The notes under the pieces: generated by a model
What the model saw: the letters and a program-made list of their open reading frames with translations, nothing else
What the model was told of the DNA's origin: nothing
Databases searched by the model: none
Shown: one piece after another, positions 1-33,164 of the stretch
How positions within the stretch are numbered: the stretch's first letter is position 1
Layout: each line of letters opens with the position of its first letter
Made by a program: the position numbers and the translations under genes
Assembly (NCBI GenBank): GCA_963815215.1
Contig: CAWFFU010000012.1
Location: 64,001 to 128,000 of the forward strand
Length of the DNA stretch: 64,000 bases
DNA from: an uncultured Trueperaceae bacterium
GTDB taxonomy: Bacteria; Deinococcota; Deinococci; Deinococcales; Trueperaceae
Reading direction: 5' to 3'

Positions 1-308
1 ACCTGGCGCGCGCCTTCGAGGGCGCCGATCTGCTGCTCACGCCGACCGCGCCGAGCGCCGCCTACCGGTTGGGCGAGAAGGTCGACGATCCGCTGGCGAT
101 GTACCTGGGCGACGTCTGCACCTGCCTGGCGAACCTCTCCGGCCTGCCGGCCGTCAGCGTACCTGCCGGACGCACCGAGGAGGGCTTGCCGACCGGCGTG
201 CAGCTGATGGCTCCCGCGCTGCAGGAGGCGCTCCTGCTGCGTGTGAGCGCCGCGCTCGAGGCGCGCGCGGGCGACGCCTTCGCGCCGCTGGCGCCGCGCG
301 CCGCCTGA
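1..308 (+). CDS. gatA: Asp-tRNA(Asn)/Glu-tRNA(Gln) amidotransferase subunit A, C-terminal part (5' truncated)
   Basis: Frame 3 reads ...DLLLTPTAPSAAYRLGEKVDDPLAMYLGDVCTCLANLSGLPAVSVPAG...GLPTGVQLMA, the typical GatA C-terminus. Confidence 0.9.
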   Translation, partial: LARAFEGADLLLTPTAPSAAYRLGEKVDDPLAMYLGDVCTCLANLSGLPAVSVPAGRTEEGLPTGVQLMAPALQEALLLRVSAALEARAGDAFAPLAPRAA

Positions 309-334
309 GGTCGCCGCGCGCGGCGACCTCAGGC
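303..334. terminator. Perfect 32-bp palindrome between convergent genes (probable bidirectional terminator)
   Basis: gcctgaggtcgccgcg|cgcggcgacctcaggc; contains both stop codons; no U-tract. Confidence 0.6.
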
Positions 335-1486
335 CTCGAACAGCTCCCTCGGGAAGTCGGTCAGCACCTCGCAGCCGTCCTCGGTCACGCGGACGGTCTC
401 GCTGCACCCCACGCCGCCCTTGCCCGGGATCTGGACCCACGGCAGCAGGTGGAAGGTCATGTTGTGTTGCAGCGGTCGCCCCTCGCCGGGCTTCATGCTG
501 AGGATCTGCCCCTCGCCCCAGTCGGGGGGCACCGCGATGCCGATGGAGTAGGCGGTGCGGGACGCCTGGTTGTCGCCGAAGCCGGCGTCGGCGATGAGGG
601 TGCGGCACACGCGGTCGACCTCGCCGGCCGGCACGCCCGGACGGATGGCGTGCGTAGCGGCCTCGACGGCTTGCACCACCACCTCGAAGGCGCGCTTCAG
701 CTCCGGGTCGGCGTGCCCCACCACCACGGTCCGCATCATCGCGGCGTGGTAGCGATTGCGGCAGCCGCCGACCTCCAGGAATACGCTGTCGTGATCCTGG
801 ATGGTGCGCCCCTTCCAGGTGGCGTGGCCGATGGCGCCGCGCTCGCCGGAGGCGATGAAGGGCACGATCGACGGCCAGTGGCTGCCTCCGCGGATGAGCG
901 CGGCCATCAGCTCGGCCGCGACCTCGTCCTCGGTGCGGCCGCTCGCCACGGCGTTCACGCCCGCCCGCATGGCGACGGCGGCGGCGGCCGCGGCGTGCCG
1001 GATCTGCTCGACCTCCACGTCGGACTTGACCAGTCGCAGCCGCTCGACGAGCCCCGAGACGTCCACGAAGGTGGCGGCGGGAAGCGCGCCGAGCAAGCGC
1101 CGCTGCTGCGAGGCCGTGAAGAACCAGCAGTCCTGTTCGTAGCCCACTCGCGCGTTCGCCAGACCGCTCTCGATCAGGCGTGCGGCCAGCGTGGCCATGT
1201 TGTCGTCGCTGTCGAAGTAGCTGTAGTTGAGTTCGAGCCAGGTTCCGTCCTCGATCCCGCTCGTCTCCAACAGGCGCGAGAAGGTGAAGGGCTCGCCCCG
1301 GAGCGGCACCACCAGCGCTTGGAACCAGTAGTGGCCGGGCGAGTCGAAGCCGGTGAGGTAGGTGATGTTCTCCGGCGTGGTGGTCAATACGGCGTCGAGC
1401 TCCTGCACCGCCATCACGCCGCGCAGGGCGGCCAGCCGTCGCCGGTACTCCTGCATGGGAAAGACGAGGTCGTCGCGCTGACGCAT
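329..1486 (-). CDS. eutD: Ectoine hydrolase EutD/DoeA-like protein (M24 pita-bread fold)
   Basis: FPMQEYRRRL N-terminus, FLEVGGCRNRYHA, AYSIGIAVPPDWGE and MTFHLLP resemble DoeA/EutD; M24 metal ligands mostly replaced; ehu/eut genes adjacent. Confidence 0.8.
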   Translation of the reverse strand: MRQRDDLVFPMQEYRRRLAALRGVMAVQELDAVLTTTPENITYLTGFDSPGHYWFQALVVPLRGEPFTFSRLLETSGIEDGTWLELNYSYFDSDDNMATLAARLIESGLANARVGYEQDCWFFTASQQRRLLGALPAATFVDVSGLVERLRLVKSDVEVEQIRHAAAAAAVAMRAGVNAVASGRTEDEVAAELMAALIRGGSHWPSIVPFIASGERGAIGHATWKGRTIQDHDSVFLEVGGCRNRYHAAMMRTVVVGHADPELKRAFEVVVQAVEAATHAIRPGVPAGEVDRVCRTLIADAGFGDNQASRTAYSIGIAVPPDWGEGQILSMKPGEGRPLQHNMTFHLLPWVQIPGKGGVGCSETVRVTEDGCEVLTDFPRELFEA

Positions 1487-1516
1487 CCATCGGTCCCTTC
1501 CGCCCGCGGCCCGAGG

Positions 1517-1546
1517 TTGACAACCTCTCGGCGGGGCGCGTACACT
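1517..1546 (+). promoter_or_regulatory. Sigma70-type promoter for the gntR-lyase-ehu-eut operon
   Basis: TTGACA (1517-1522), 18-bp spacer, TACACT (1541-1546). Confidence 0.7.
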
Positions 1547-1550
1547 CTCG

Positions 1551-1573
1551 ATGTCTACAACTTGTATACAAGT
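1551..1573. promoter_or_regulatory. GntR/FadR-type operator
   Basis: Perfect 14-bp palindrome ACTTGTATACAAGT (1560-1573) preceded by an imperfect copy ATGTCTACAA; AT-rich in a GC-rich background; next to a GntR gene. Confidence 0.7.
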
Positions 1574-1587
1574 GCTCTGTCACCCGC

Positions 1588-1617
1588 ATTCTAGGTCTCT
1601 TGTTCCCTGCGGGTCAA
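1588..1617 (-). promoter_or_regulatory. Sigma70-type promoter for eutD
   Basis: Minus strand TTGACC (1617-1612), 18-bp spacer, TAGAAT (1593-1588). Confidence 0.65.
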
Positions 1618-1679
1618 CCATCATCGGGGCAAGCGGCCACCCGCCCCGGTCCTCGCTGAGGGAAGGCATTCGCAAGACT

Positions 1680-2366
1680 ATGCATCCACGCGAAACCGTC
1701 GAGCGCCCTCGCGGCGTCGTCATCATCTACCGCGAGCTGCGCGACCGGATCTGCCTGCTGCATTACCCACCGGGAGCGATGCTGAGCGAGAACGCGCTGG
1801 CGGAGGAGTTCGGCGTGAGCCGCACGCCCATCCGGCAGGCGCTGCAACGCCTGGAGTTCGAGGGTCTGGTGGTGAGTCGGCACGGGGTGGGCACCATGGT
1901 CACCACCGTCGACCTGCGGTACCTGCGGGAGGTCTACGCCCTGCGCCTGAAGCTGATCGACCTGATCGGTGAGATCCCTCCGGCACGCATCACCCACGGC
2001 GACCTCGACATCCTGGCGGAGCTGGCGGCCGAGGCGCGCGAGCTGCGGGGGAAGCGCGGGCCGCAGGCTCTGGCGCGCGTCTACTACCGCTTCAACGAGG
2101 AGCTCTCACGCGCCACCGGCAACCAGCCGCTGCGGGAGATCGCCGACCGGCTGTTCTGGCAGACGGCGCGGGTGTGGCTCCAACTGCTGCCGGAGATGAC
2201 CTGGGAGAACGAGGTGGACATCATCGTGGACGAGATCGAGAGCGTGCTTCAGGCGCTCAGGCGCGAGGACATGCAGGGTGTGGCGGCGGTCCGCCGCAAG
2301 CACATGGTGCTCTGTCTGGGTCGCGTCAACAGCTATCTGGAAGGTCCTATCTTGGCCCTGCCGTGA
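1680..2366 (+). CDS. GntR-family transcriptional regulator (FadR/FCD type)
   Basis: LSENALAEEFGVSRTPIRQALQRLEFEGLV winged HTH plus an all-helical FCD-like C-terminus; ATG 1680 preferred. Confidence 0.9.
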   Translation: MHPRETVERPRGVVIIYRELRDRICLLHYPPGAMLSENALAEEFGVSRTPIRQALQRLEFEGLVVSRHGVGTMVTTVDLRYLREVYALRLKLIDLIGEIPPARITHGDLDILAELAAEARELRGKRGPQALARVYYRFNEELSRATGNQPLREIADRLFWQTARVWLQLLPEMTWENEVDIIVDEIESVLQALRREDMQGVAAVRRKHMVLCLGRVNSYLEGPILALP

Positions 2367-2411
2367 GGCGGGCCGAACCGACGGCAACAGAGTTCGACTG
2401 GGAGGTCAAGG

Positions 2412-3626
2412 ATGACGAAGCGGCGTGAACCGGCGCTGGAAACGCTCGCCGTGTGGGCGGGCGAGGATCGACCCACCATGCAGAGGGCGACGCAGGTGCC
2501 CGTGGTGCACAGCGTGTCCTTCGGCTACGACGATCTGGACGAATGGCGCGACGTCGCGCTCGGCAGGCGCGAGGGCCACATCTACGGCCGCAACACCAAC
2601 CCCACGGTGCAGGCGTTCGAGGAGAAGGTGCGCCAACTCGAGGGAGGCGAAGCGGCGACGAGCTTCGCCACCGGCATGGCGGCGATCAGCAACACCCTGT
2701 TCACGCTGCTGGCTCCCGGCCGGCGGGTGGTGTCGGTGAAGGACACCTACGGCGGCACCAACAAGATCTTCACCGAGTTCCTGCCGCGCTTCGGCGTCGA
2801 GGTGCAGCTCTGCGACACCGCCGACGTCGACGCCATCGAGGCCGAGGTGGCGAGGGGCTGCGACGTGCTCTACCTGGAGACCCCGACCAACCCCACCTGC
2901 AAGATCATGGACATCCGGCGGCTCGCCGACGCCGCCCGGCGCGTGGGCGCCACGGTGGTGGTCGACAACACCTTCGCCACCCCCATCAACCAGAACCCGC
3001 TCGCGCTCGGCGCGGACCTGGTCATTCACAGCGCGACCAAGTACCTGGGAGGTCATGCCGACGCGCTCGGCGGCGCCCTGGTGGGGTCGAAGGAGCTGGT
3101 GCACGACGTGTACCACTACCGCGAGATCAACGGCGCCACGCTCCACCCGGAGGCCGCCTACCTGCTTTTGCGCGGCATGAAGACGCTCGGCCTGCGCATC
3201 GCTCGCCAGAACGCCAGCGCCCTGGCCGTCGCACGGCACCTCTCCGACCATCCCGCCGTCACGGCGGTGTTCTATCCGGGCCTGGAGAGCCACCCCAACC
3301 ACGACGTGGCCGAGCGCCAGATGCGGGGCTACGGCGGCATGCTGTCGTTCCAGCTCGAGGGCGGCTTCGAGGCCGTCAAGATCTTCCTGCCGCGCCTGCG
3401 TTTCGCGCATCGGGCGGCCAACCTGGGGACCGTGGAGACCGTGGTGGCGCCTCCGGCGACCGGCAGCCACGTCGAGTTGACGGCCGAGGAGCGTGCCGCC
3501 ATGGGTATCCCCGAGAGCCTGGTGCGCTACTCGGTGGGCATCGAGGACGTCCACGATCTCATCGACGACCTGGATCAGGCGCTGGCCCATACCGTCGAGC
3601 GGATCGGTGCAGGGGCGGCCGGATGA
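2412..3626 (+). CDS. PLP-dependent Cys/Met-metabolism family gamma-lyase/synthase
   Basis: YGRNTNPT, TGMAAI, YGGT, ETPTNP, VDNTFATP, HSATKYLGGH (PLP lysine), RYSVGIED; RBS ggagg. Confidence 0.9.
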   Translation: MTKRREPALETLAVWAGEDRPTMQRATQVPVVHSVSFGYDDLDEWRDVALGRREGHIYGRNTNPTVQAFEEKVRQLEGGEAATSFATGMAAISNTLFTLLAPGRRVVSVKDTYGGTNKIFTEFLPRFGVEVQLCDTADVDAIEAEVARGCDVLYLETPTNPTCKIMDIRRLADAARRVGATVVVDNTFATPINQNPLALGADLVIHSATKYLGGHADALGGALVGSKELVHDVYHYREINGATLHPEAAYLLLRGMKTLGLRIARQNASALAVARHLSDHPAVTAVFYPGLESHPNHDVAERQMRGYGGMLSFQLEGGFEAVKIFLPRLRFAHRAANLGTVETVVAPPATGSHVELTAEERAAMGIPESLVRYSVGIEDVHDLIDDLDQALAHTVERIGAGAAG

Positions 3627-4654
3627 CCGTCACCCGTCTGGCCCTCATCGGTTTCGGTACCGTCGGGCAGGGGTTCGCGCAGATCCTGGCCGAGCGCGGT
3701 GAGGCGCTGGCCGAGCGCCACGGGCTCGAGTTGAGCATCACCGCGGTCAGCGACTTCAAGCGCGGCAGCGTCTACCGGGCGAAGGGCTTCGACCCCCGAG
3801 AGCTGCTGGACGCCGCCGACGCGCTCGAGGCGCTCGACGCCGACGCCAAGGGCTGGGACGCCATGACCACCATCCGGGAGTCGGGTGCCGACGTCGTCGC
3901 CGAGCTCAGCTTCACCGACCTGAAGACCGGCGAGCCGGCTCTGACCCATGTGCGCGAGGCGCTGACGCGCGGCATGGACGTGGTGACCACCAACAAGGGG
4001 CCCATCGCCCTGCGCTTCGCCGAGCTGCGCCGCCTCGCGGCCGAGCACGGCGCCGGCATCGGCGTGGAGGGCACGGTGATGAGCGGGACGCCCACGCTGG
4101 CGCTGGGCGCGGGCCTGCTGGCGGGCGCCGGCGTCAGCCGCATCCAGGGCATCCTGAACGGGACCACCAACTTCATCCTCACGCGCATGGAGGCCGGACT
4201 CGACTTCGCCGCCGCGCTGGCCGAGGCGCAACGGCTGGGCTACGCCGAGGCCGATCCCAGCGGCGATGTCGATGGTGTCGACGCCGCCGGGAAGGTGGTG
4301 ATCCTGGCCAACCTGGTCATGGACGCGCCCCTGGCGATGGACGACGTCACGCGCCAGGGGATCGGCGACATCACGCCGGCCGACATCGCCGCCGCCGCCG
4401 CTGCGGGTGAGCGCTGGAAGCTGCTCGGCAGCGTGGAGCGCGCGCCCGACGGTAGCGTGCGTGCCAGCGTGGGACCGCAGCGCGTGCCGCTGTCGCACCC
4501 GCTGGCGGGCATCGGGGGACCGACCAACGCCTGCACCTTCACCACCGACCTGCTGGACGACGTCACCATCGTCGGTCCCGGAGCGGGCCGCCTCGCCACG
4601 GGCTACGCGCTCGTCGAGGACCTGATCGCGCTGCGGAGCGGCGGGAGGCGCTGA
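3623..4654 (+). CDS. hom: Homoserine dehydrogenase (short form, no ACT domain)
   Basis: ATG overlaps the lyase stop (ATGA); GFGTVG, VVTTNK, EGTVMSGTP, GILNGTTNFIL, GYAEADPSGDVDGVDAAGK, GPGAG. Confidence 0.9.
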   Translation: MTVTRLALIGFGTVGQGFAQILAERGEALAERHGLELSITAVSDFKRGSVYRAKGFDPRELLDAADALEALDADAKGWDAMTTIRESGADVVAELSFTDLKTGEPALTHVREALTRGMDVVTTNKGPIALRFAELRRLAAEHGAGIGVEGTVMSGTPTLALGAGLLAGAGVSRIQGILNGTTNFILTRMEAGLDFAAALAEAQRLGYAEADPSGDVDGVDAAGKVVILANLVMDAPLAMDDVTRQGIGDITPADIAAAAAAGERWKLLGSVERAPDGSVRASVGPQRVPLSHPLAGIGGPTNACTFTTDLLDDVTIVGPGAGRLATGYALVEDLIALRSGGRR

Positions 4655-4657
4655 GCC

Positions 4658-6073
4658 ATGGAGATGTTGCTGGCAGGGGAATGGGTCACGCGCGACGCCG
4701 TGATCGAGGTGACGGATCCCGACGACGGTAGGGTCATCGACACCGTCCCCCAGGGCACCACCGATGACATGGAGCGAGCCCTGGACGCCGCCGAACGCGG
4801 CGCTGCGCTCGCCCGGGCGCTGCCGACGCACCGGCGCATGGCGGTGCTCGCGGAGGCGGCGCAGCGTCTCGAGCGCGACCAGGAGTCGTTCGCGCGACAG
4901 ATCGCACAAGAGGGCGTCAAGACCATCCGGGAGGCGCGCAAGGAGGCGAGCCGGGCGGCGGACACGTTGCGCCTCAGCGCCGAGGAGGCCCGGCGCGTGC
5001 ACGGCGAGACGCTGGCCTTCGATCAGCGCCCCGGCAGCGAGGGGCGCTTCGGCTACTACGTTCGCGAGCCGGTGGGCATCGTCGCGGCCATCACCCCCTT
5101 CAACGACCCGCTCAATCTGGTCGCCCACAAGGTGGGGCCCGCCATCGCCGCCGGCAATGCCGTCGTGCTCAAACCCGACTCCAAGACACCGTTGAGCGCC
5201 CTGAAGCTCGGCGCGCTGCTGCTCGACAGCGGCCTGCCGCCCGACCTGCTGCAGATCATCACGGGCCGCGGCAGCGTCATCGGGGATGTGCTGGTGCGTG
5301 ACCCGAGGGTACGGGTGGTGTCGTTCACGGGGGGCCGCGACGCCGGCGAGGCGATCGTTCGCGCGGGCGGCCTCAAGCGCTACAGCATGGAGCTCGGTAG
5401 CAACGCGCCCACCATCGTCATGGACGATGCCGATCTCGACGCTGCTGTGCCGGCCATCGTGTCCGGCGCCTTCTGGGCCGCCGGGCAGAACTGCCTGCAC
5501 GTGCAGCGCCTGCTGGTGCAACAGGGCGTGTACGACGAGGTCCGCGACCGCATGGTGGCGGGCGCGGAGGCGGTCCGTAGCGGCCCGAAGCTCGACGAGA
5601 CCACCGACATGGGGCCCATCATCGACGCGGCCAACGTCGTGCGAATCGCCGCCATGGTACAAGAGGTCCGGACCGCTGGAGCCCGCCTCCTCACGGGAGG
5701 TGGCCATGAAGGCACGCACTTCGAGCCAACGCTGCTCGAGGGTGTCCCGACCGATAGCCGGCTCGCCCGCGACGAGGTGTACGGCCCGGTCACGATCCTC
5801 CAACGCGTCCACGACCTGAACGAGGCTGTCGCCGTCGCGAACGATGTCGACTACGGCCTTCAGGCGGCCGTCTTCACCCGTGACCTCGACACCGCGCATC
5901 GCGCGGTCTCCGCCCTCCACTACGGAGGCGTGATGGTCAACGACAGCACCGATTACCGCATCGACGCCATGCCATTCGGCGGCGTCAAGGGTTCGGGGCT
6001 CGGACGTGAAGGCGTCGAGTTCGCGATCCACGAGATGACCGAGCTCAAGCTCGCGAGCTTCGTCCTGCATTGA
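4658..6073 (+). CDS. NAD(P)-dependent aldehyde dehydrogenase
   Basis: [26 protein letters not shown] (catalytic Cys), [19 protein letters not shown]. Confidence 0.92.
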
Positions 6074-6104
6074 CGGAGCCGGCGGAACCCATGAGGAGGG
6101 ACCT

Positions 6105-6944
6105 GTGGCCGCGACCACCGAACGCGAGGCAACCCAACACGACGAGGTCGCCCGGGCCGAGGCCCTGGAGCGTGCGGAGCCGATGGTGCGCTTCGAGAAG
6201 GTGCGCAAGTCCTTCGGCTCGCTCACGGTCCTGCGCGATCTCGACTTCACGGTGCGGGCGGGGGAGAAGGTCGCGATCATCGGTCCGAGCGGCTCAGGCA
6301 AGACCACCATCCTGCGCGTGTTGATGACGCTGGTGAAGCCCAACAGCGGCAAGGTCTTCGTCGGCGGCGATCCGTTGTGGCACCGCGAGGTGGACGGCAA
6401 GGTCCTCCCCGCGCCCCAGAGCCAGCTCAGGAAGGTGCGCAATCGCATCGGGATGGTGTTCCAGCACTTCAACCTGTTCCCCAACATGAGCGTGCTGCGC
6501 AACGTCACCGAGGCGCCCATCCACGTCAAGGGGGTGGCGCGTGCCGAGGCGGAGGCGCGCGCCCGGGAGCTGCTCGATATGGTGGGTCTGGGCGACAAGT
6601 TCAAGGCCTTCCCCTCGCAGCTCTCCGGCGGGCAGAAGCAGCGCGTCGCCATCGCGCGCGCACTGGCGATGGACCCCGACCTGATGCTGTTCGACGAGGT
6701 CACCTCCGCCCTCGACCCCGAGCTCGTCGGCGAGGTACTGGGCATCCTGCGGCAGCTCGCGCACGAGACCAACATGACCATGCTGATCGTGACCCACGAG
6801 ATGGGCTTCGCCCGCGACGTCTCCGACCGCGTTGTGTTCTTCGATGCCGGTCAGGTGGCCGAGGAGGGCCCGCCCTCCAAGATCTTCAGCGAGCCCGAGA
6901 ATCCCAGGACGCAGAGCTTCCTCAAAGCAGTCCTGGAGCACTGA
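6105..6944 (+). CDS. ehuA: Ectoine/hydroxyectoine ABC transporter ATP-binding protein
   Basis: [33 protein letters not shown]; polar amino acid ABC type; eut context. Start codon uncertain. Confidence 0.85.
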
Positions 6945-7199
6945 GCAGCAGGACCGGCGGCTGCGAGGGCGCGGCCGCGACGCACACGGGCCGGCACCGT
7001 CCCGGCCGCGGAAGGATGTGAACCTATGTCCGAAGGGCCGCCGTCATGGGCCGAGGCCCCGCGCCGGAGCGCGGGGCGCGGCCGACCGACCGGCACCGGT
7101 CTGGCGCCTCCCTGGCGCCGACCGGTTACGCCACCAGGGCGCGCGCATGTGGCCACGTGCCCGCCCGAAGACTCGATGTTCGAAACACAAGGAGGAACC

Positions 7200-8063
7200 A
7201 TGGCCAACCGTACGCTCAAGACCCTCACGCTGACTCTATTCGCCGTTGTGGTCGGTGCTCTGGCCTTCGCCCAGGGCGACCTCTTGCAGCAGGTCCAACA
7301 GCGGGGCTACATCCGCGTCGCGACCGCCAACGAGATCCCCTACGGCTACATCGACCAGAACGGTGACGCCAAGGGCATCGCCCCCGACGTCGCCACCGCC
7401 GTCCTGAAGAGGATGGGGATCACCGACGTCCAGTGGATCGTCACCGAGTTCGGCTCGCTGATCCCCGGGCTCAAGGCCAACCGCTTCGACATGGCGGCCG
7501 CCAGCCAGGCCATCCTGCCGGCCCGGTGCCAGCAGGTGATCTACTCCAAGCCGAACTCCAGTTACGGTGAAGGGCTCATGGTCCCCGCGGGCAACCCGAA
7601 GAGCATCCACGGGTACGACGCCTTCGTGAACGACTCCAGCCTCAAGCTCGGCATCGTGTCGGGTGCCGACGAGCTCGATTTCGCCCACGCCATGGGGATC
7701 TCGGACAGCCAGATCGTGATGATCCCGGCCAACACGGACGCCCTGTCGGCAGTCACGACCGGTCGCATCGACGCCTACGCCGGTACCGGCCTGACGGTCG
7801 ATCGCCTGGCGAAGAAGTCTGACAAGGTCGAGCCGGTGGACCCGTTCAACGACCCCGTCGTCAACGGCAAGCCGGTCCGGAGCTGGGGCGGTTTCACCTT
7901 CAACAGCAACAACACCGCCTTCCGCGACGCCTACAACAAGGAGCTCGCGGCCTTCCAGCAGACCCCCGAGTACGCCAAGATCCTGACGAGCTACGGTCTG
8001 TCCAACACCGACGTTCAGCAGGCCCTGGCGAAGACCACCCAGGAGCTGTGCAGCGGACAGTAG
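7200..8063 (+). CDS. ehuB: Ectoine/hydroxyectoine ABC transporter substrate-binding protein
   Basis: RBS aaggagg; signal peptide; ANEIPYGY, APDVA, EFGSLIPGL, PARC, GNPK, C-terminal ELC resemble EhuB. Confidence 0.88.
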   Translation: MANRTLKTLTLTLFAVVVGALAFAQGDLLQQVQQRGYIRVATANEIPYGYIDQNGDAKGIAPDVATAVLKRMGITDVQWIVTEFGSLIPGLKANRFDMAAASQAILPARCQQVIYSKPNSSYGEGLMVPAGNPKSIHGYDAFVNDSSLKLGIVSGADELDFAHAMGISDSQIVMIPANTDALSAVTTGRIDAYAGTGLTVDRLAKKSDKVEPVDPFNDPVVNGKPVRSWGGFTFNSNNTAFRDAYNKELAAFQQTPEYAKILTSYGLSNTDVQQALAKTTQELCSGQ

Positions 8064-8073
8064 CTTCTGAACG

Positions 8074-8105
8074 GGCGGGCGGGTGCCTCGAGGCACCCGC
8101 CCGCC
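8074..8105 (+). terminator. Perfect 32-bp palindrome after ehuB (attenuating or mRNA-stabilising hairpin)
   Basis: ggcgggcgggtgcctc|gaggcacccgcccgcc followed by tccttatcttcttt. Confidence 0.65.
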
Positions 8106-8184
8106 TCCTTATCTTCTTTCGGGCCGCGGCGCGGGAGCGAGGCTCCTGGCGCACGCACCACCTCTGGAAGGGGGGAGGACGGGC

Positions 8185-8853
8185 ATGGACCTGAGCACCC
8201 TGCTTCCGCCGTTGCTCAAAGGCGCGCGGCTCACGGCCGAGCTGGCCCTGATGTCGACGGTTCTCGGAGGCGTGATGGCCTTCGTGGCCGGCATCGGGAA
8301 GCTCTCGCGCTTCTGGCCGGCGCGCATCCTATCGATCGTGTACGTGGAGGTCTTCCGCGGCACCAGTCTTCTGGTGCAGATGTTCTGGCTCTATTACGCG
8401 TTACCGCTGCTGGGCGTCAGCCTCAGCGCGACCCTGGCGGGCGTCCTGGCGCTCGGCCTCAACATCGGCGCCTACGGTGCCGAGGTCGTACGCGGCGCCA
8501 TCCTATCGGTGCCCACGGGCCAGTACGAGGCGTCGCTGGCCCTCAACTTCACGCGCCGCCACACGCTCTGGAACGTGGTGCTGCCGCAGGCGGTGGTCGA
8601 GATGATGCCCCCGTTCGGCAACCTGGTCGTGCAGAACCTCAAGGACACCGCGTTGGTCTCGTTGATCACCCTCAGTGACCTGACCTTCCGCGCCCAGAGC
8701 CTGCGCAACCTGACGCTGGAGACGGTGCCGATCTACAGCGCCACGCTGGTGCTCTACTTCGCCATGGCGCTGGTGTTGATGGTCGGCATGCGCTGGATCG
8801 AGCGCGCCGTCGCGCATCGCGTCGGCGTGACCGCGGCGAGGTCACGCTCATGA
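8185..8853 (+). CDS. ehuC: Ectoine ABC transporter permease
   Basis: RBS ggagga; YVEVFRGTSLLVQMFW, AYGAEVVRGAI, GQYEAS. Confidence 0.85.
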   Translation: MDLSTLLPPLLKGARLTAELALMSTVLGGVMAFVAGIGKLSRFWPARILSIVYVEVFRGTSLLVQMFWLYYALPLLGVSLSATLAGVLALGLNIGAYGAEVVRGAILSVPTGQYEASLALNFTRRHTLWNVVLPQAVVEMMPPFGNLVVQNLKDTALVSLITLSDLTFRAQSLRNLTLETVPIYSATLVLYFAMALVLMVGMRWIERAVAHRVGVTAARSRS

Positions 8854-9542
8854 TGTTCGGCATCCACTGGGACCTCAGCTCCAACGGAGCGTTCGCAGTG
8901 TCCATCCTCCCCATCCTGCTGCGCGGCATGATCATCACCATCGAGGCCACCGCGCTCGGCTTCCTGGTGGCGCTGGTCCTCGGGCTGGTCTTCGCGCTGT
9001 TGCGCGCCGTTCCCATGAAGTTGGTGGCCTGGCCGACGGCCTTCGTCATCGAGTTCGTGCGCGACACGCCGCTGCTGGTGCAGCTCTACTTCCTGTACTT
9101 CGTGCTGCCGAACTTCGGCATCGTACTGCCGGCCTTCCTCACGGGCGCCCTCGCGCTCGGCGTGCAGTACAGCGCCTACACCTCGGAGGTGTATCGCGCC
9201 GGTCTCGAGGCGGTGCCCCGCGGCCAGTGGGAGGCGTCGTTGGCGCTCAACATGCCCACCTGGCTGGTGTACCGCGACGTGGTCGTGCCCCAGGCCGTAC
9301 CGAGGGTGATCCCCGCGCTCGGCAACTATCTCGTGTCGATGCTCAAGGACACCCCGATCCTTTCGGCGGTGACGGTGCTGGAGATGCTGAACCTGGCCAC
9401 CATCATCGGCGACCGCACCTTCCGCTACCTGGTTCCGCTGTCGATGGTGGGTGGGCTGTTCCTGGTGTTGACGCTGTTCAGCTCCTGGCTGGTGCGGGTG
9501 CTGGAGCGTCGCATGCCCAACGACGGCATCCCGCTCCGGTAG
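8850..9542 (+). CDS. ehuD: Ectoine ABC transporter permease
   Basis: ATGA overlap; EFVRDTPLLVQLY, YSAYTSEVYRAG, GQWEA, LGNYLVSMLKDTP. Confidence 0.85.
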   Translation: MMFGIHWDLSSNGAFAVSILPILLRGMIITIEATALGFLVALVLGLVFALLRAVPMKLVAWPTAFVIEFVRDTPLLVQLYFLYFVLPNFGIVLPAFLTGALALGVQYSAYTSEVYRAGLEAVPRGQWEASLALNMPTWLVYRDVVVPQAVPRVIPALGNYLVSMLKDTPILSAVTVLEMLNLATIIGDRTFRYLVPLSMVGGLFLVLTLFSSWLVRVLERRMPNDGIPLR

Positions 9543-9551
9543 GCTGATCGG

Positions 9552-10571
9552 GTGGACAGGCCCACGTTACGGGACGTCTACGCTGCCGCGCAGGCCTTGC
9601 GAGGCGTCGCGCGGCGCACGCCGCTGGTCGAGAGCACGGCGTTGACGGCCGTCTCCGGCGGCCCCGCGCACCTGAAGCTGGAGAATCTGCAGGCCACCGG
9701 CGCGTTCAAGATGCGCGGGGCGACCAACGCCCTGGCGGCGCTCGACGATCGCGCACGGGCGCGCGGCGTCGTGGCGGTCTCCACCGGCAACCACGGGCGC
9801 GCGGTGGCCACAGCGGCGCGCCGGCTCGGGGTGAACGCCACCGTGTGCGTGTCCGACCGCGTGCCTGCGGGGAAGATCGCCGCGCTTCGGGCCACCGGCT
9901 GCGAGCTCGTGATCGCCGGCGCCAGTCAGGACGACGCCGAGGTCCAGGCCCGGAAGCTCGTCGAAGAGCGCGGGCTCACCCTGATCCATCCTTTCGACGA
10001 TCCGACGGTGATCGCCGGCCAGGGCACGATCGGGCTGGAGATCCTCGAGGAGCTCGCGGGCGTTCGGCGGGTGGTCGTTCCGCTGTCAGGTGGTGGGCTG
10101 ATCGCCGGGGTGGCGCTGGCCGTCAAGTCGGCCGATCCCGCGATACGCGTTGTCGGGGTCTCGATGGAGCGGGGGGCCGCCATGGCGCGCAGCCTACGCG
10201 CCGGGCGGCCGGTTCCCACGCCCGAGGAGCCGACGCTGGCCGACAGCTTGCAGGGCGGCATCGGCGATGCCAACCGTTACACGCTGGAGATGGTCGCCGA
10301 GTTCGTCGACGACGTGGTGCTGGTGGGCGAGGAGGCGATCGCCCGCGCCATGCGTTTCGCGTTCGTGCAGGAGCGGCAGGTGCTGGAGGGGGGCGGGGCA
10401 GTGGGCATCGCGGCGCTCCTCGAGGGGGCGCTGCCCAGGATGGCGGGGCCGACGGCGGTGGTGTGCTCGGGTGGCAACATCGATCCGGAGCGATTCCTCG
10501 ACGTCATCGGGAGCGTCGGGTCCGCGGACGATGAGGACCCGATGGCATTGCACGGAGAGGAGCCCTCATGA
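9552..10571 (+). CDS. eutB: Hydroxyectoine utilisation dehydratase (threonine dehydratase family)
   Basis: KLENLQATGAFKMRGA, STGNHG, PLSGGGL, TLADSLQGGIG; followed by eutC. Confidence 0.85.
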   Translation: MDRPTLRDVYAAAQALRGVARRTPLVESTALTAVSGGPAHLKLENLQATGAFKMRGATNALAALDDRARARGVVAVSTGNHGRAVATAARRLGVNATVCVSDRVPAGKIAALRATGCELVIAGASQDDAEVQARKLVEERGLTLIHPFDDPTVIAGQGTIGLEILEELAGVRRVVVPLSGGGLIAGVALAVKSADPAIRVVGVSMERGAAMARSLRAGRPVPTPEEPTLADSLQGGIGDANRYTLEMVAEFVDDVVLVGEEAIARAMRFAFVQERQVLEGGGAVGIAALLEGALPRMAGPTAVVCSGGNIDPERFLDVIGSVGSADDEDPMALHGEEPS

Positions 10572-11548
10572 GCCAGCCCACCGATCCCCAGATCCTCTAC
10601 GAGCACGAGCTCCGCGCCCTGGTCGACCTCGATGGCGAAGGTCTCGATGCCGTGCGCGAGGCGTTCCGTCGGCTCTCGGGCGGCGACGCGGTGCAGCCTC
10701 CGGTGATGCGCATCGACGTGCCGGAACACCACGGCGAGGTCGACGTCAAAGGTGCCTACATCCGTGGGCTCGACAGCTTCGCTGTGAAGATGTCCTCGGG
10801 CTTCTTCGACAACCCCCGGCGCGGCCTGCCGACGGCCAGCGGCCTGATGGTGCTGATCGACGCCGAGACCGGCGTGCCGCGGGCCGTGCTGCTCGATAAC
10901 GGCTACCTCACCGACGTGCGCACGGCGCTGGCGGGCGCCGCCGCTGCCGACGCGCTCGCCCGGGCGGCGGTCGACACCGTGGCGGTGCTTGGGGCCGGCG
11001 CGCAGGCGCGTTGGCAGCTCCGCGCGCTCATGCTGGTCCGCTGGCCGCGCCGCGCGCTGGTGTGGGCGCGACGGCGGGCCGAGGCCGACCGGCTGGCTAC
11101 GGAGATGACCGAGCAGCTCGGCATACCGGTGGCGGCGGTCGCCGAGGCCGAACGGGCAGTGCGCGAGAGCGACCTCGTCGTGACCACCACGCCGGCCACG
11201 CAGCCCATCGTGCAGGCGGGGTGGCTGCACCCCGGGTTGCACGTCACCGCGATGGGGTCGGACGCCGAGCACAAGCAGGAGCTCGAGCCTGCCGTACTCC
11301 GCCGGGCCGACGTCCTGGTGAGCGACCGCCGCAGCCAGGGCCTGACCATCGGCGAATTGCGCTCGGCCCACGAAGCGGGCGTCGACGTGAGCGAGGAGCG
11401 CGTCGCCGAGCTCGGCGAGGTGCTCGCCGGCGCGCGGCCGGGGCGGACCGCAGAGGACCAGATCACCGTCTGCGACCTGACCGGAACCGGTGTGCAGGAC
11501 ACCGCCATCGCGCGGCTGGCGGCGGCGCGGGCGGCGACCTCGGGCTGA
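10568..11548 (+). CDS. eutC: Ectoine utilisation protein, ornithine cyclodeaminase/mu-crystallin family
   Basis: GEVDVKGAY, SSGFFDNPRRGLP, DNGYLTDVRTA, MGSDAEHKQE, DLTGTGVQDTAIA. Confidence 0.88.
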   Translation: MSQPTDPQILYEHELRALVDLDGEGLDAVREAFRRLSGGDAVQPPVMRIDVPEHHGEVDVKGAYIRGLDSFAVKMSSGFFDNPRRGLPTASGLMVLIDAETGVPRAVLLDNGYLTDVRTALAGAAAADALARAAVDTVAVLGAGAQARWQLRALMLVRWPRRALVWARRRAEADRLATEMTEQLGIPVAAVAEAERAVRESDLVVTTTPATQPIVQAGWLHPGLHVTAMGSDAEHKQELEPAVLRRADVLVSDRRSQGLTIGELRSAHEAGVDVSEERVAELGEVLAGARPGRTAEDQITVCDLTGTGVQDTAIARLAAARAATSG

Positions 11549-11565
11549 GGCCGCTCGGCCGGAGC

Positions 11566-14500
11566 TCACGGCCCCGAGGCGCGCACGGCCAGGTGGCCCT
11601 GTGCGAGCTGTTTCCCGTCGGCCAACAGCGTCGCGGTGAAGGTTCCGGCCTTCGCCGGCGCCAGCATCGTACCCGTGAACGCGCCCGGGCCCGTCCGCGT
11701 GAGGGCCGTGGAGGTGCCCTGGAGCCTGACGTCGACATGCGCTGCCTTCACCAGCACGTGGGCTTCCACGCTGACGCGCTCGCCCGGGGTGGCGAAGCCG
11801 GGCGTGAGGGTGAGGGTGGCCAAGGGTCCCGAAGTGACGATCACCGTCTCGTCCTGCGTGACGCTGTGCTTGGCGCTGCGTGCCGTGATCTGGAGCGTCT
11901 CGGCGCCGTCCGAGGCGTGACGGCCGTGGCGATGAGGCAGGGGCGGCAGCGTGACCGTGCCCTGGAAGCGTCCACCACCGAGCGGGCTCAGGGCGACGCT
12001 CGGACCGTTCGCCCAGCGGGCGTTGACGCCGGACGCGCCGGGTGCCGTCGCCGTGATCGTGAGCTGCGCGCCAGAGGGCGCCGTGGAGGGTGACACCCGG
12101 GCGTGCAATGCGAGCGACCCGGCGGTGAGCGTGGTCGTCACGACGGTCTGGGGCGGGGTGACGCCGAGCTCGACCGACGGTGCGCTGTTGGCAGGGCCGA
12201 GGTCGACGCTCACGGAGCGCAGGTTCGGGTGGTAGCCCGCGGGGAGGCTGCGCTGCACCAGCGCGAGCAGGTAGTGGCCGGGGGCGAGCCCGTTGAAGAC
12301 GAAGTCTCCGCTGGCATCGGTATCGGTGGAGCGCTGCTCGCCGTTGGGCCCGGAGAGCTGTACCGTCACGAAGGTGAGGCCCCTGGACTGTGCAGTCGGG
12401 TGCCGGCTGCCCGGCGCGGCGCTGTACACCTGACCGGACACGCTGAAGCTGCGCTTCACGACGATCGTGGTGGTGGTCGTGCGGTGAAGCCGCACGGTGA
12501 CGCGGGGCGAGCCGACGACGGTGAGATCGAGTGGCAGGTTCGCGAGCTGTAGTGCAGTGGTGCCCAGTGGCAGCCGGAGCGTGAAGTCACCATGCTGATC
12601 GGTGCGCGCCTGGCGGTTGGCCGCGGCCGCCACGACCAGCACCCCCGGCAGGCCCTGAGCGCCGGAGGCGGTGTGCAGGACGACGCGGCCGTGCACGGTG
12701 CCGAGGCGGAGGCCGCCGAAGGCCGCCACCACCGACGGCGGGACCTGGAGCCCCGACAGCACGTCCGCGCTGAGCCCCACGCGGTACGTGACGGCATGGT
12801 TGGGGTCGACGCCTACCGTTCCCTGCAGGGCGATCGCGTGCGTGAGCTGGTAGCTGAGCTGGGCGTTGCCGAACAGGCGTCCGGTTGCCGTCTGGTAGTC
12901 CAGCGTCACTCCGGTGGCGACGGGACCGAGGTGAAGGCCGCCGTGTGCGTCCACCACAGGCTCCACGGGTGTGGAGATCGGCGCCGAGGTGCCGGCGCCG
13001 ATGCTGAAGCCGTTCCCGACATAGGTCTCGTCGAGCGACGCGTTCCACCCCCCCGCTTCGGTGACTCCTACCCGGGTCACCCAGGGGAGCGGGGCGACCA
13101 CGGTGAACAGGCTTCCCGAGAGTTGGACGTGTCCCTGTTCGAGCTGGCCCCGGATCGAGGTCCGGACGCTGCCCAGGTGCCCGGGTATCAGGTATACGAC
13201 CGAGAAGTGGCCGGAGCCGGCGCGCAGGTCGCCGGTCGCGGTGTAGCGAGCATGCTGGCTCGTGACGACGGCGGGGCCGAGCGTCTCGTACACCGACAGG
13301 GTGCCGTTCGACCCCTTCGGAGTCACGGTGGCGCTCGCGCCGAAGCCGATGGGACGGATCGCCTGGCTGTAGAGATCGAGCGTCGCTTGCCACGGTTCCG
13401 ACCCGCGGGGCGTGTAGACGCCGCCCACATCGCCCAGCAGCCCGATCCCCGACCCCTGCAGGGTGGCACCCACCAGGGGTCCGACAAGGTAGCCGCTGGG
13501 CGAGTTCTGGCCCGTGACGCCCACGTGTCCGGTGACCTGGAGCCAGGGGGTCAAGGGAGCGACGTACGAGACGGAGAGCGCGTCGGTCGACGGGTTCGTC
13601 CACGCGTGGTCGTAGGCGACGTTGAAGGCTCCGACGGTGTAGCCGACGCCGGTCCTGAGCGCCCCGGAGGCCGAGGTCGCCAAGGTCCCCGAAACGCCGC
13701 GATACCTGCCCGTCAGGTCCTGGCCTCCGAGGGGCTGATAACGGTACGAGACGCTCCAATCGTTGCCCAGCAGGCCGACGTGGCCTCCGACGCCGCCGCT
13801 GTAGGAGACCCCGCTGTCCGTGCGGACGAAGTCGGACAGACTGCCGCGGATGCCGGCGCTCGCCCGGGCCTCGAGGCCGGTGGTGCCGTAGGACACGGAG
13901 AAGGGAAGGTTCAGGTCGAGGAGCGGAGCCGAGGGGTCCGCGCCGGGGAAGGGCAGGACGTCGTAGTCGTAGACGAGTCGCTGGTCGTAGGAACTTCCTA
14001 TCGCGGCGGCGGTCACGATGGCGACGCGATGCCCGAAGGCGCGTGGGGTCACCTGGAGGCGCGCCGTCCCTGAGGTTCCGGGAGCCAGGTGAAGGTGCCC
14101 CGGTGCGACACTCGCCGAGTCCTCGCCGCTGACCGACAGCGCGAAGGTCTCAGGCGCATTGCCCTGGTTGACCAGGGTCAGGGTCGTTTCGAACGACGTG
14201 CCGGCCACCGCGGCCACCGGCGGTGGAGAGCCGTGCAGCGTGGCCTGCAGGACCGTAAGCACGACGATCGTGACGGTGGTGCTGGCCGTCACGGTGCCCG
14301 CATGGTTCAGGGTCACCTGGACGCGATGCGGGCCCGCCCGCGCGGAGGGGTCGACCAGGACCGTTGCCAGCAGCTGTCCGCGCTCTTGCGCGCTCGTCCC
14401 CAGCGCGGTCAGGCCGGTGGCCGGGTGGAGTTCGACCGTCCCCGGACCGTGCGTGCGAAGGGGGATCGCGACCACGTCCCCCGGCATCGCCGGCGCGAGG

Positions 14501-14607
14501 CGGCCCGCGCCGATGGACGCCGCCTTCGCCGGCGGCCCCAGGAGGCTGCCAAGGACGGCGATGACGGCGACCGCCAGCGTGCGCCATCCGTTGCGGCCCG
14601 GGATCAT
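11566..14607 (-). CDS. Large exported protein (~1013 aa), putative usher-like outer-membrane protein
   Basis: ATG 14607 overlaps the upstream stop; signal peptide; Ig-like N-terminal domains (NQGNAPETFAL); long Gly/aromatic amphipathic beta region; two TDxxGxF carboxypeptidase-regulatory-like modules. Confidence 0.6.
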   Translation of the reverse strand: MIPGRNGWRTLAVAVIAVLGSLLGPPAKAASIGAGRLAPAMPGDVVAIPLRTHGPGTVELHPATGLTALGTSAQERGQLLATVLVDPSARAGPHRVQVTLNHAGTVTASTTVTIVVLTVLQATLHGSPPPVAAVAGTSFETTLTLVNQGNAPETFALSVSGEDSASVAPGHLHLAPGTSGTARLQVTPRAFGHRVAIVTAAAIGSSYDQRLVYDYDVLPFPGADPSAPLLDLNLPFSVSYGTTGLEARASAGIRGSLSDFVRTDSGVSYSGGVGGHVGLLGNDWSVSYRYQPLGGQDLTGRYRGVSGTLATSASGALRTGVGYTVGAFNVAYDHAWTNPSTDALSVSYVAPLTPWLQVTGHVGVTGQNSPSGYLVGPLVGATLQGSGIGLLGDVGGVYTPRGSEPWQATLDLYSQAIRPIGFGASATVTPKGSNGTLSVYETLGPAVVTSQHARYTATGDLRAGSGHFSVVYLIPGHLGSVRTSIRGQLEQGHVQLSGSLFTVVAPLPWVTRVGVTEAGGWNASLDETYVGNGFSIGAGTSAPISTPVEPVVDAHGGLHLGPVATGVTLDYQTATGRLFGNAQLSYQLTHAIALQGTVGVDPNHAVTYRVGLSADVLSGLQVPPSVVAAFGGLRLGTVHGRVVLHTASGAQGLPGVLVVAAAANRQARTDQHGDFTLRLPLGTTALQLANLPLDLTVVGSPRVTVRLHRTTTTTIVVKRSFSVSGQVYSAAPGSRHPTAQSRGLTFVTVQLSGPNGEQRSTDTDASGDFVFNGLAPGHYLLALVQRSLPAGYHPNLRSVSVDLGPANSAPSVELGVTPPQTVVTTTLTAGSLALHARVSPSTAPSGAQLTITATAPGASGVNARWANGPSVALSPLGGGRFQGTVTLPPLPHRHGRHASDGAETLQITARSAKHSVTQDETVIVTSGPLATLTLTPGFATPGERVSVEAHVLVKAAHVDVRLQGTSTALTRTGPGAFTGTMLAPAKAGTFTATLLADGKQLAQGHLAVRASGP

Positions 14608-15188: not shown

Positions 15189-15204
15189 GGGTCCGCGCCC
15201 CCCA

Positions 15205-16098: not shown

Positions 16099-16106
16099 CT
16101 TTCAGC

Positions 16107-16937: not shown

Positions 16938-17055
16938 GGAAGCCTTCTTCCTCATGGACTAGCGCACGTGGGTGGATCTGCCGTTCGGTGGGAGTCGCGA
17001 TGGACGATCGGGCAGGTGCTCACCTCCTCTCCGACGCGAACCGCGAACCATGCAG

Positions 17056-17119
17056 ATGCTAGGTGGCGGCACGTTGCCGCCTCGTTCCACTCGTCTCACG
17101 CTCGTCTGCGGCGGGTCTC
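17056..17119 (-). promoter_or_regulatory. Putative pilus-operon promoter with periodic direct repeats
   Basis: -10 TAGCAT (17061-17056); repeats cgttgc/cgttcc/cgtctc/cgtctg/ggtctc at 17072, 17083, 17092, 17103, 17114. Confidence 0.45.
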
Positions 17120-17168
17120 ATGGCGTCGACCTACGATGCTGGGCGTTACGGGTACCCGGGGGTAACGC

Positions 17169-32965: not shown

Positions 32966-33164
32966 CTCGCACAGTATAGGCGGGTCGCGGCGGCCGGGAG
33001 GTTCGCCGTGGCACGCCCACCGCTGAGGGGGCGGGCGGTGTCCCGGTCCCGTCGTGGCGCCAGGGACCCGCTTCTGGAGCCTTGGTTATAGTGGGGCGCA
33101 TACGTGCAAGCGTCTGCCGGCCTGGGGTGCGGTATGCCCACGGGCCGTTGAGAGGCGGCAGAAC

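Follow-up and report, generated by a model that had tools for sequence, protein, structure and literature searches.

The stretch of DNA considered here (the window, 64,000 nucleotides from contig CAWFFU010000012.1) belongs to an uncultured Trueperaceae bacterium, a salt-habitat member of the Deinococcus group whose genome comprises 3.32 Mb in 14 contigs and is 97% complete. The G+C content of the window is approximately 70%. Eleven genes lie within positions 329-11548: an M24 hydrolase on the minus strand, and then, on the plus strand, a GntR regulator, a pyridoxal 5'-phosphate (PLP)-dependent lyase, a homoserine dehydrogenase (Hom), an aldehyde dehydrogenase (ALDH), ehuABCD, eutB, and eutC. 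Genes were called from a list of open reading frames (ORFs) together with Pfam and NCBIfam profile scans, and bit scores were compared with the cut-off of each model. A sequence-only reading of the window had named the four ehu genes, eutB, eutC, an eutD-like hydrolase, the lyase, Hom, and ALDH, and had proposed that ectoine is degraded in this organism by way of homoserine. All of the named genes were recovered by these analyses, as follows:

329..1486, minus strand: M24-family ectoine-hydrolase-like enzyme of the DoeA_2 type, divergent from the operon (Pfam Peptidase_M24 and Creatinase_N; NF038259; TIGR02993)
1551..2366, plus strand: GntR/FCD-family transcriptional regulator (Pfam GntR, 75.1 bits; FCD, 33.4 bits)
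2412..3626, plus strand: PLP-dependent enzyme of the Cys/Met-metabolism family, PRK08249 clade, the proposed gamma-lyase (PF01053, 435.8 bits; NF006097)
3623..4654, plus strand: homoserine dehydrogenase (Hom) of the short PRK06270 class, without an ACT domain (NF004912, 400.8 bits; cut-off 373)
4658..6073, plus strand: aldehyde dehydrogenase (ALDH), with a proposed DoeC/Ssd role (PF00171, 504.1 bits)
6105..6944, plus strand: ehuA, ATPase of the ectoine/hydroxyectoine ABC importer (TIGR03005, 394.3 bits; cut-off 345.4)
7026..8063, plus strand: ehuB, substrate-binding protein (TIGR02995, 302.6 bits; cut-off 190.9)
8083..8853, plus strand: ehuC, permease (TIGR03004, 284.9 bits; cut-off 196.95; the match begins at residue 39)
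8850..9542, plus strand: ehuD, permease (TIGR03003, 318.3 bits; cut-off 205.2)
9552..10571, plus strand: eutB, PLP-dependent dehydratase for hydroxyectoine utilisation (NF005680/PRK07476, 427.2 bits; cut-off 413)
10568..11548, plus strand: eutC-like gene of the ornithine cyclodeaminase/mu-crystallin family (NF006141/PRK08291, 459.1 bits; cut-off 408)

The cluster is very probably a real operon for the uptake and catabolism of ectoine and hydroxyectoine. The importer and the EutB and EutC enzymes of a canonical cluster are all represented, with EhuA-D, PRK07476, and PRK08291 each above their cut-offs, and the closest structure to EhuB in the Protein Data Bank is 2Q88 (144.8 bits; runner-up, 62.5 bits). 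On two further models the scores are below the cut-off: eutB reaches 391.5 bits on TIGR02991 (cut-off 413.35) and the eutC-like gene 420.4 bits on TIGR02992 (cut-off 471.65). The best models for the M24 enzyme are the two ectoine-hydrolase profiles, and both scores are again below the cut-off (NF038259 DoeA_2, 409.5 bits against 575; the EutD model TIGR02993, 216.5 bits against 613). Its closest solved structure is the ectoine hydrolase DoeA (6TWK, 194 bits), followed by prolidases at 117 bits. Additionally, M24 orthologs adjoin the lyase in seven of the eight closest Trueperaceae-type loci (L009-L016); at L013 the sequence ends 447 bases upstream of the lyase. (Handles beginning with L denote the loci compared; G000 is the window's own genome, and the other G handles are genomes of the Trueperaceae family.) Two types of M24 enzyme accompany the same lyase, one DoeA_2-like, as in the window, and one EutD-like, as in Bacillaceae, and the two are 33-39% identical to each other.

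The lyase, Hom, and ALDH form a tightly linked trio. The stop codon of the lyase and the start codon of Hom overlap as ATGA at 3623-3626, and Hom and ALDH are separated by 3 nt (4655-4657); the sequence-only reading had described this coupling, and direct reading of the sequence agrees with it. The lyase is a full-length member of its family, and among solved structures methionine gamma-lyases come closest to it (318.7 bits). With 687.3 bits on NF006097/PRK08249 (cut-off 600), it passes a single model, the name of which is merely generic, and it is below the cut-off of every functional equivalog (for the methionine gamma-lyase model TIGR01328, 389.8 bits against 549.7). The catalytic residues Y58, R60, Y113, D185, K210, and R372 are invariant in 79/79 sequences of the clade, and to judge from these residues the enzyme looks catalytically intact. 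At three methionine gamma-lyase positions the clade differs, with Gly (115; 79/79) for Cys115, Ala (336) for Val338, and Asn (74/79) for Ser339. Cys115 (Citrobacter numbering) and Val338 are presumably pocket-lining or active-site residues of methionine gamma-lyase, and Gly115 and Ala336 are smaller. Ser339 is described as conserved in methionine gamma-lyase in the accessible part of one report (PMC9307983). Residues that are invariant in the clade and absent from all five outgroup sequences include H56, D111, N117, E238, and E355. Orthologs of the lyase are 82-97% identical in the closest Trueperaceae loci and 67-77% identical elsewhere, across many phyla; lyases with and without a neighbouring M20 enzyme share this 67-77% identity. 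The window's own genome encodes three further Cys/Met-family paralogs, one of which adjoins a MetX-like gene.

Two enzymes of canonical ectoine degradation were not found. The sequence-only reading had reported eutE and atf as missing from the cluster, and this extends to the whole genome, in which no equivalog of EutE or of an L-2,4-diaminobutyrate (DABA) transaminase was detected. Family scans of the operon found no EutE/DoeB, Atf/DoeD, or EutA. In the whole genome, EutE has one weak match (116.5 bits; cut-off 402.7), located on another contig (C10); this gene was rejected as a hidden eutE, being an AstE/AspA-family relative far below the cut-off. EutE was likewise found in 0/61 genomes of the family sample at E<=1e-50 (one of these genomes, G033, is unpublished, and no claim hangs on it) and in 0/4 of the Bacillaceae genomes that bear the cluster; Sinorhizobium fredii pNGR234b, used as the positive control, gave 637 bits. 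For the EctB/DoeD-type transaminase, the genome holds seven class-III aminotransferases, the best of which reaches 225.6 bits against a cut-off of 552.2 on TIGR02407, an EctB model rather than a DoeD-specific one. The best two, both on contig C2, were considered as a hidden atf and rejected, as one is a GabT equivalog and the other a PRK06917 enzyme. They are part of a group of genes (G000:C2:19430-25491; L007, L002, L114) that looks catabolic and comprises an amidase-family gene, an Ehu-like polar-amino-acid ABC system with an ATPase 49% identical to EhuA, the PRK06917 aminotransferase, and the GabT equivalog.

Candidates for the deacetylase were sought nearby and in the rest of the genome. 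By family scans, the remainder of the 64-kb window contains no amidohydrolase or aminotransferase, and no M20 enzyme or PucR regulator is present anywhere in the window. The amidase gene upstream of the M24 gene (G000:C12:62842-64266) was considered as a deacetylase or acetamidase and rejected, as it is the only GatA of the genome (530.7 bits against 481.1; other amidases, <=227). Generic M20 enzymes exist elsewhere in the genome, and the best DoeB2-like one (C8:49944-51041) scores 303.7 bits against a cut-off of 550. It is a possible deacetylase. Its standing as a cluster-specific deacetylase is unsupported, as M20 enzymes with like scores occur in 54/61 family genomes regardless of the cluster.

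Hom is a PRK06270-class enzyme. Together with ALDH it has counterparts in a canavanine-type cluster on a plasmid of R. leguminosarum (L096), with identities, nearly over the full length, of 49.1% for Hom and 49.7% for ALDH. In comparison to the ectoine-cluster proteins of Priestia, the identities are 48.5% for Hom and 54.6% for ALDH. The ALDH passes no equivalog model, no DoeC/Ssd model is among its matches, and its best paralog in the same genome is 41.6% identical. The R. leguminosarum locus encodes a B3/4 protein, an ABC transporter, a PLP enzyme, an SMR exporter, Hom, ALDH, dapA, and aspartase, a gene content that matches the canavanine cluster in the accessible part of the publication (PMC9533460). 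As set out there, canavanine gamma-lyase eliminates hydroxyguanidine and hydrates the vinylglycine ketimine to homoserine, an NAD-dependent Hom and an ALDH continue to aspartate, and aspartase yields fumarate (Hauth et al. 2022, PMC9533460). In the same accessible part, the enzymes assayed are the Hom, ALDHs, and aspartase of Pseudomonas and the lyases of both organisms, and the rhizobial Hom and ALDH are not among them.

In a tree of 23 Homs, the window Hom, the cluster-type Homs, and the canavanine-cluster Homs fall on one side of a 100/100 split, and the housekeeping Homs of relatives in Trueperaceae fall on the other. Nine family genomes have a Hom within 3 kb of the lyase. In five of them the cluster Hom is the sole Hom (the window's genome, G027, G052, G006, and G024), and in the other four (G010, G016, G041, and G059) a second, housekeeping-type Hom is kept besides it. 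It looks like the housekeeping Hom has repeatedly been displaced by the cluster paralog.

The gene arrangement is not due to chance. Relatives have it as well, and so do members of other phyla. The lyase has 463 relatives in species genomes, and the best 80 of the 463 loci were kept for neighbourhood counts, which are therefore biased towards close relatives; neighbours were mapped with the proteins of the window and of a Thalassobacillus locus as queries. At least one ectoine-type gene is near the lyase at 54/80 loci, an M24 hydrolase at 51/80, and Hom with ALDH at 42/80, and the corresponding counts among the 40 Bacillaceae loci are 40, 40, and 34. A DoeB2-like M20 enzyme is encoded between the lyase and Hom at 34/80 loci, all 34 of which are among the 40 from Bacillaceae. 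Six of the 40 (Gracilibacillus and Salipaludibacillus) are without the M20 and keep only M24-lyase-Hom-ALDH. In the family sample, the lyase is above its cut-off in 23/61 genomes. A DoeA-like M24 was counted (E<=1e-60) in 14/61, and 12 of those 14 carry the lyase on the same contig; G059 also has a DoeA-like M24 according to tblastn. Conservation of the trio with ectoine genes, the lack of which would have counted against the sequence-only reading, is seen in several Trueperaceae genera and at 34/40 Bacillaceae loci, and the lyase likely takes part in the function of the ectoine operon.

The gene order varies around this core. The order of the window is shared by G010 and G024. In G041 and G059 it is GntR-lyase-Hom-ALDH-EutB-EutC-EutD, in G007 it is GntR-lyase-EhuBCDA-EutB-EutC-EutD, with an EutD of 725.9 bits (cut-off 613), and in G017 the lyase is inserted between ehuB and ehuC. 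A contig from Acidimicrobiia (L026) has GntR-lyase-EutC-EutB. The Thalassobacillus locus (L041) encodes eutB, PucR, an EutD-like M24, EutC, PRK08249 (739 bits), a DoeB2-like M20 (237 bits; cut-off 550), Hom, and ALDH. Plasmid pBMV_1 of Priestia megaterium ATCC 14581 (L097) carries the Thalassobacillus-type set plus pdxS, which encodes a PLP synthase subunit. The latter is situated between eutB and the M24 gene (L097 3081-3965) and fits a cluster with two PLP enzymes. In Gracilibacillus lacisalsi (L055 3027-13756), PucR-M24-lyase-Hom-ALDH stands head-to-head with three ORFs in the positions of ectA, ectB, and ectC, the score of 679 bits being that of EctB, the one product scored; ectoine synthesis and putative degradation would be adjacent there. 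In G016 (L105, C279, 5715-12322; 47% GC), the lyase is parted from Hom by a 443-aa ORF without an NCBIfam match, and immediately past ALDH comes a threonine-synthase-like gene. Threonine synthase is also in the gene list for canavanine loci (PMC9533460, Fig. 5B legend). Stand-alone lyases are beside other amidohydrolases in six of 12 loci inspected. In other phyla (L017, L018, L019, L027, L044, and L057), their neighbours include M20 enzymes, an S58 peptidase, a CN-hydrolase, an enzyme of the arginase family, and a GNAT fusion of an HDAC-like deacetylase. There are hints in such neighbourhoods that the substrate of the clade may be an amino acid released by de-acylation or de-amidination.

Taken in order, the proposed route would begin with import of ectoine or hydroxyectoine by EhuABCD. 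The divergent M24 hydrolase would open the ring to give N-acetyl-2,4-diaminobutyrate, and the acetyl group would be removed by an amidohydrolase encoded outside the operon, for which the candidate is a generic M20 enzyme elsewhere in this genome and the in-cluster M20 in most Bacillaceae. The PRK08249 enzyme would bind DABA via its alpha-amino group and eliminate the gamma-ammonium to form a vinylglycine-ketimine, and addition of water would then give L-homoserine, with chemistry as in canavanine gamma-lyase. Hom would convert homoserine to aspartate semialdehyde, and ALDH would convert the latter to aspartate. EutB and EutC would remove the hydroxyl from a hydroxyectoine-derived intermediate, which would join the same route, and GntR would control the operon. 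Gene identities, the structure of the operon, the lack of EutE and DoeD equivalogs, and the conserved company of the lyase and ectoine genes are observed; every chemical step, above all the substrate and the product of the lyase, is an inference.

A route through homoserine, whichever of DABA and its gamma-acetyl form is the substrate, is considered probable. Were DABA transaminated, aspartate semialdehyde would arise in one step and Hom would have no task, whereas a lyase giving homoserine would make Hom necessary. This need for Hom, as read from gene content, would be the strongest argument for the homoserine route. In its more specific form, with DABA as the substrate and an unlinked deacetylase, the route appears to have an even chance of being correct. 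Of the sequence-only reading, the proposal of a homoserine route is retained in part: conservation of the trio, the absence of EutE and Atf, and the canavanine precedent speak for it, and the single Hom of the genome and a related operon without the lyase speak against it. A wider proposal is put forward tentatively, with slightly less than an even chance. According to it, PRK08249 would be an undescribed class of C-N gamma-lyases, namely DABA ammonia-lyases that form homoserine and perhaps accept N-gamma-acetyl-DABA; a second, transaminase-free ectoine route would exist across Deinococcota, Bacillota, Actinomycetota, and probably others; and the catabolic Hom would have displaced the housekeeping Hom in the window's genus. 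A search of the literature, with most subscription journals outside its reach, found no proposal of a lyase step from ectoine or DABA to homoserine.

Several observations weigh against the homoserine route. The cluster Hom is the only Homoserine_dh gene of the genome, which also has ThrC (235.8 bits against 167.1) and a MetX-like gene (480.1 bits against 500); Hom must therefore also serve biosynthesis and is not purely catabolic. Its nucleotide-binding motif is GFGTVG, not GXGXXN, and by its letters this is the motif type of dual-cofactor Homs; the rhizobial cluster Hom has GFGGVN. According to the accessible part of a preprint (Liang et al., 10.1101/2021.02.09.430557), NAD-only, oxidation-only Homs carry GXGXXN, and the PRK06270 class includes an enzyme that only oxidizes homoserine. 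Between the lyase and the rhizobial homolog of canavanine lyase, identity is only 36.7%, no higher than with the second paralog there (36.8%) or with methionine gamma-lyases, so that the predicted product of the lyase comes from gene context and not from orthology. In the literature searched, no gamma-elimination of an amine by the Cys/Met PLP family was found. At 26/80 loci (0/40 in Bacillaceae) neither an ectoine gene nor a Hom gene is near the lyase, and 15 of these 26 have at least 5 kb of sequence on either side; thus the function of the clade may exceed ectoine. Hom and ALDH are not beside the lyase in G007, in G017, and at 6/40 Bacillaceae loci. Conversely, G013 (L118, contig C56, 8747-15298) has GntR-Hom-ALDH-EutB-EutC-EutD without the lyase. 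Its best PRK08249-like match is a 378.8-bit paralog on a different contig, and its operon may do naturally without the lyase or may use another enzyme. Finally, no deacetylase gene is present in any Trueperaceae operon layout examined, and because of the occurrence of like-scoring enzymes irrespective of the cluster, nothing ties the DoeB2-like M20 of this genome to ectoine.

The closest alternative keeps homoserine and changes the substrate. The sequence-only reading had favoured this version, in which N-gamma-acetyl-DABA, released by M24, is turned into homoserine by the lyase through loss of acetamide and hydration, so that no deacetylase is needed and four enzymes suffice. It would account for the lack of a deacetylase in the Trueperaceae layouts and at 6/40 Bacillaceae loci. 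By established PLP chemistry, the alpha-amino group must be free for both the lyase and EutB, as it is in the gamma-acetyl isomer, and that isomer resembles O-acetylhomoserine as its amide analogue. The smaller Gly115 and Ala336, at positions that we take to line the pocket, also fit. Ammonia from a protonated amine is a much better leaving group than acetamide, however, and in most Bacillaceae clusters (34/40) a DoeB2-like M20 adjoins the lyase, which would be unnecessary under obligate one-step removal. The operon has no acetamidase, and the upstream amidase-family gene is the genome's only true GatA. On the side of the hydrolases, the accessible parts of two studies describe the alpha isomer of acetyl-DABA as the main or only product, for Ruegeria EutD (PMC8739950) and for Methylotuvimicrobium DoeA (PMC7192451), although gamma-acetyl-DABA does accumulate in Ruegeria during growth on ectoine (PMC8739950). 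DABA is favoured as the substrate because of the Bacillaceae M20, because stand-alone lyases often adjoin other amidohydrolases, and because the alpha isomer, the main product of characterised hydrolases, is unable to bind PLP before deacetylation. Among readings that pass through homoserine, DABA is thus placed somewhat ahead of gamma-acetyl-DABA, and a direct action on the latter, which would bypass deacetylation, is unlikely.

The other alternatives dispense with homoserine as an intermediate or with ectoine as the substrate. If DABA or acetyl-DABA underwent a complete alpha,gamma-elimination on the lyase, in the manner of methionine gamma-lyase and with 2-oxobutyrate and ammonia as products, Hom and ALDH could handle aspartate semialdehyde from another source or provide a link to Thr/Met metabolism. 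The structural proximity to methionine gamma-lyases and the lyase clusters with no Hom and ALDH nearby (G007, G017, and 6/40 Bacillaceae loci) are in line with this, as is the formation of some 2-oxobutanoate as a side product of canavanine gamma-lyase, reported in the accessible part of PMC9533460. It is nonetheless quite improbable, as it explains neither the Hom and ALDH pair at 42/80 loci and its ATGA coupling to the lyase in the window nor the 49-50% identity to a homoserine-oxidising pair of the canavanine type, and family scans found no 2-oxobutyrate enzyme in the operon. A little less probable again is that the trio serves ordinary Met/Thr metabolism inside the operon and that ectoine is degraded canonically by an unlinked M20 with GabT or another class-III transaminase. 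Such enzymes are present in the genome (generic M20 enzymes and a GabT equivalog), Hom is the sole one beside ThrC and a MetX-like gene, and 26/80 lyase orthologs are outside an ectoine context. Yet the lyase stays with ectoine hydrolase genes in at least three phyla and in several gene orders, even inside an ehu operon; three other Cys/Met-family paralogs are already available, one beside the MetX-like gene; four relatives retain a separate housekeeping Hom; and the Bacillaceae cluster is additional to ordinary metabolism and is plasmid-borne in Priestia. The least probable of the alternatives is a different imported compound, for instance a cyclic amidine other than ectoine, or DABA or homoserine carrying an N-acyl or guanidino group. 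This would suit an M24 enzyme below both ectoine-hydrolase cut-offs, TIGR02991 and TIGR02992 matches slightly below theirs, and the varied hydrolases beside stand-alone lyases, but EhuA-D are all above their equivalog cut-offs, with 2Q88 nearest to EhuB, the operon of one relative (G007) has an EutD above its cut-off, and the Gracilibacillus set is located beside the ectABC positions.

The spacer between the two divergent transcription units contains a predicted control region:

1487..1679, no strand: divergent control region, M24/GntR spacer (promoter scan and direct reading of the sequence)

The promoter scan found two facing sigma-70-like promoters, at 1517-1546 on the plus strand and at 1617-1588 on the minus strand. 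A perfect 14-bp palindrome, ACTTGTATACAAGT, is located at 1560-1573, between the two -10 boxes, and is present as a single copy in the window even when three mismatches are allowed. Ten related loci (L009-L012, L014-L016, L021, L104, and L106) have its core, TTGTATACAA, in their own M24-GntR spacers. The palindrome is likely the GntR operator, and the layout looks like a single predicted operator that would close both divergent promoters. In the longest ORF, the GntR domain starts only at residue 59, and an in-frame Met is present at residue 44. Given these positions and the overlap of promoter and operator with the 5' end of the longest ORF, the true start of GntR is probably the ATG at 1680 rather than 1551.

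A second predicted element is within the ehu genes:

8073..8106, plus strand: G+C-rich hairpin of 15 bp (terminator-like scan; 13 of 15 pairs are G-C)

The hairpin is directly 3' of ehuB and covers the annotated start of ehuC, and the true start of ehuC is probably downstream of it. It is possibly an intra-operon mRNA stabiliser or attenuator, and it may raise the mRNA of the binding protein over that of the permeases. An Rfam scan of window positions 1-13000 found no family at the gathering score. The genes flanking the cluster are housekeeping genes or have no assigned family, with GatA upstream and an ORF of 1181 aa downstream. The latter was rejected as a member of the cluster: it matches nothing in Pfam, and only the two closest loci (L010 and L011) retain it beside the cluster. 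It is the first of four consecutive ORFs with high G+C at third codon positions (1181, 297, 282, and 606 aa; window 11566-18989), none of which has a Pfam match at 1e-8. Further downstream, at window 33054-37991, a large NAD-specific glutamate dehydrogenase of 1645 aa is encoded (Bac_GDH family, 786 bits).

Ectoine ranks among the most plentiful osmoprotectants of microbes, and carbon and nitrogen cycles in the sea, in marshes, and in saline soils are fed by its turnover. If the homoserine route is correct, predicted ectoine consumers would be extended to Trueperaceae, the Cys/Met PLP family would gain a type of reaction in which a nitrogen group leaves from the gamma position and water is then added, and a highly conserved, generically named family (67-77% identity across phyla) would receive a function. 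Culturable carriers of the cluster include Gracilibacillus lacisalsi, Thalassobacillus devorans, and, on plasmid pBMV_1, Priestia megaterium ATCC 14581.

To our knowledge, the canonical ectoine route, consisting of hydrolase, deacetylase, transaminase, and semialdehyde dehydrogenase, has been shown experimentally only in Proteobacteria and is the sole route shown. In comparison to the canonical DoeABCD system of Halomonas elongata and the EutABCDE-Ssd-Atf system of Ruegeria pomeroyi and Sinorhizobium, the window cluster shares EhuABCD, a putative ring-opening M24 hydrolase, EutB, EutC, a putative terminal ALDH, and aspartate as the predicted end product (pathway as given in the accessible part of PMC8739950). 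In contrast, family scans of the window cluster found no EutE/DoeB, Atf/DoeD, or EutA; its regulator is GntR/FCD instead of EnuR (MocR) or AsnC; its hydrolase is divergent and DoeA_2-like; and it adds the PRK08249 lyase and Hom.

The nearest parallel for the added genes is the canavanine pathway of Pseudomonas canavaninivorans and Rhizobiales, in which a Cys/Met PLP gamma-lyase, a PRK06270-class Hom, and an ALDH are similarly encoded beside an ABC importer. The window lyase, however, is in another NCBIfam family and is not an ortholog of canavanine gamma-lyase, and its Hom has GXGXXG where the NAD-only class has GXGXXN. According to family scans, the window operon is also without the guanidine exporter, B3/4 editing protein, and aspartase of the R. 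leguminosarum locus. The leaving group would be nitrogen, as ammonia or acetamide, and not an O-linked hydroxyguanidine. With methionine gamma-lyase and cystathionine gamma-synthase/lyase (PF01053), the window lyase shares the full-length fold-type-I architecture and the conserved PLP Lys and catalytic Tyr, Asp, and Arg. Its clade differs from methionine gamma-lyase in having Gly for Cys115, Asn for Ser339, and Ala for Val338.

For other phyla, part of this gene content has already appeared in the literature; for Deinococcota it is new, and the mechanism is unpublished as far as the literature searched extends. Gram-positive clusters of the form pucR-eutBCD-atf / abgB-thrA-adh, without eutE, are listed provisionally as putative ectoine clusters, with no mechanism given in the accessible part of the source (Appl Environ Microbiol 2026, PMC13188858). 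Three extra genes are called a Gram-positive feature there, and that part assigns no role to Hom. Like these clusters, the window has an eutD-like M24, eutC, a PLP enzyme, Hom (thrA), and ALDH (adh), and no eutE. Unlike them, it comes from Deinococcota, a phylum not listed in the accessible part of that source, has no in-cluster M20 (abgB), is headed by GntR and not PucR, and has a DoeA_2-like hydrolase; both the abgB-type M20 and PucR are present at the Thalassobacillus and Priestia loci. In the annotated Bacillaceae loci (Thalassobacillus and Priestia), the gene at the position labelled atf in PMC13188858 is the PRK08249 lyase. If the homoserine route holds, the presence of Hom in these Gram-positive clusters would be explained and the atf label would be corrected.

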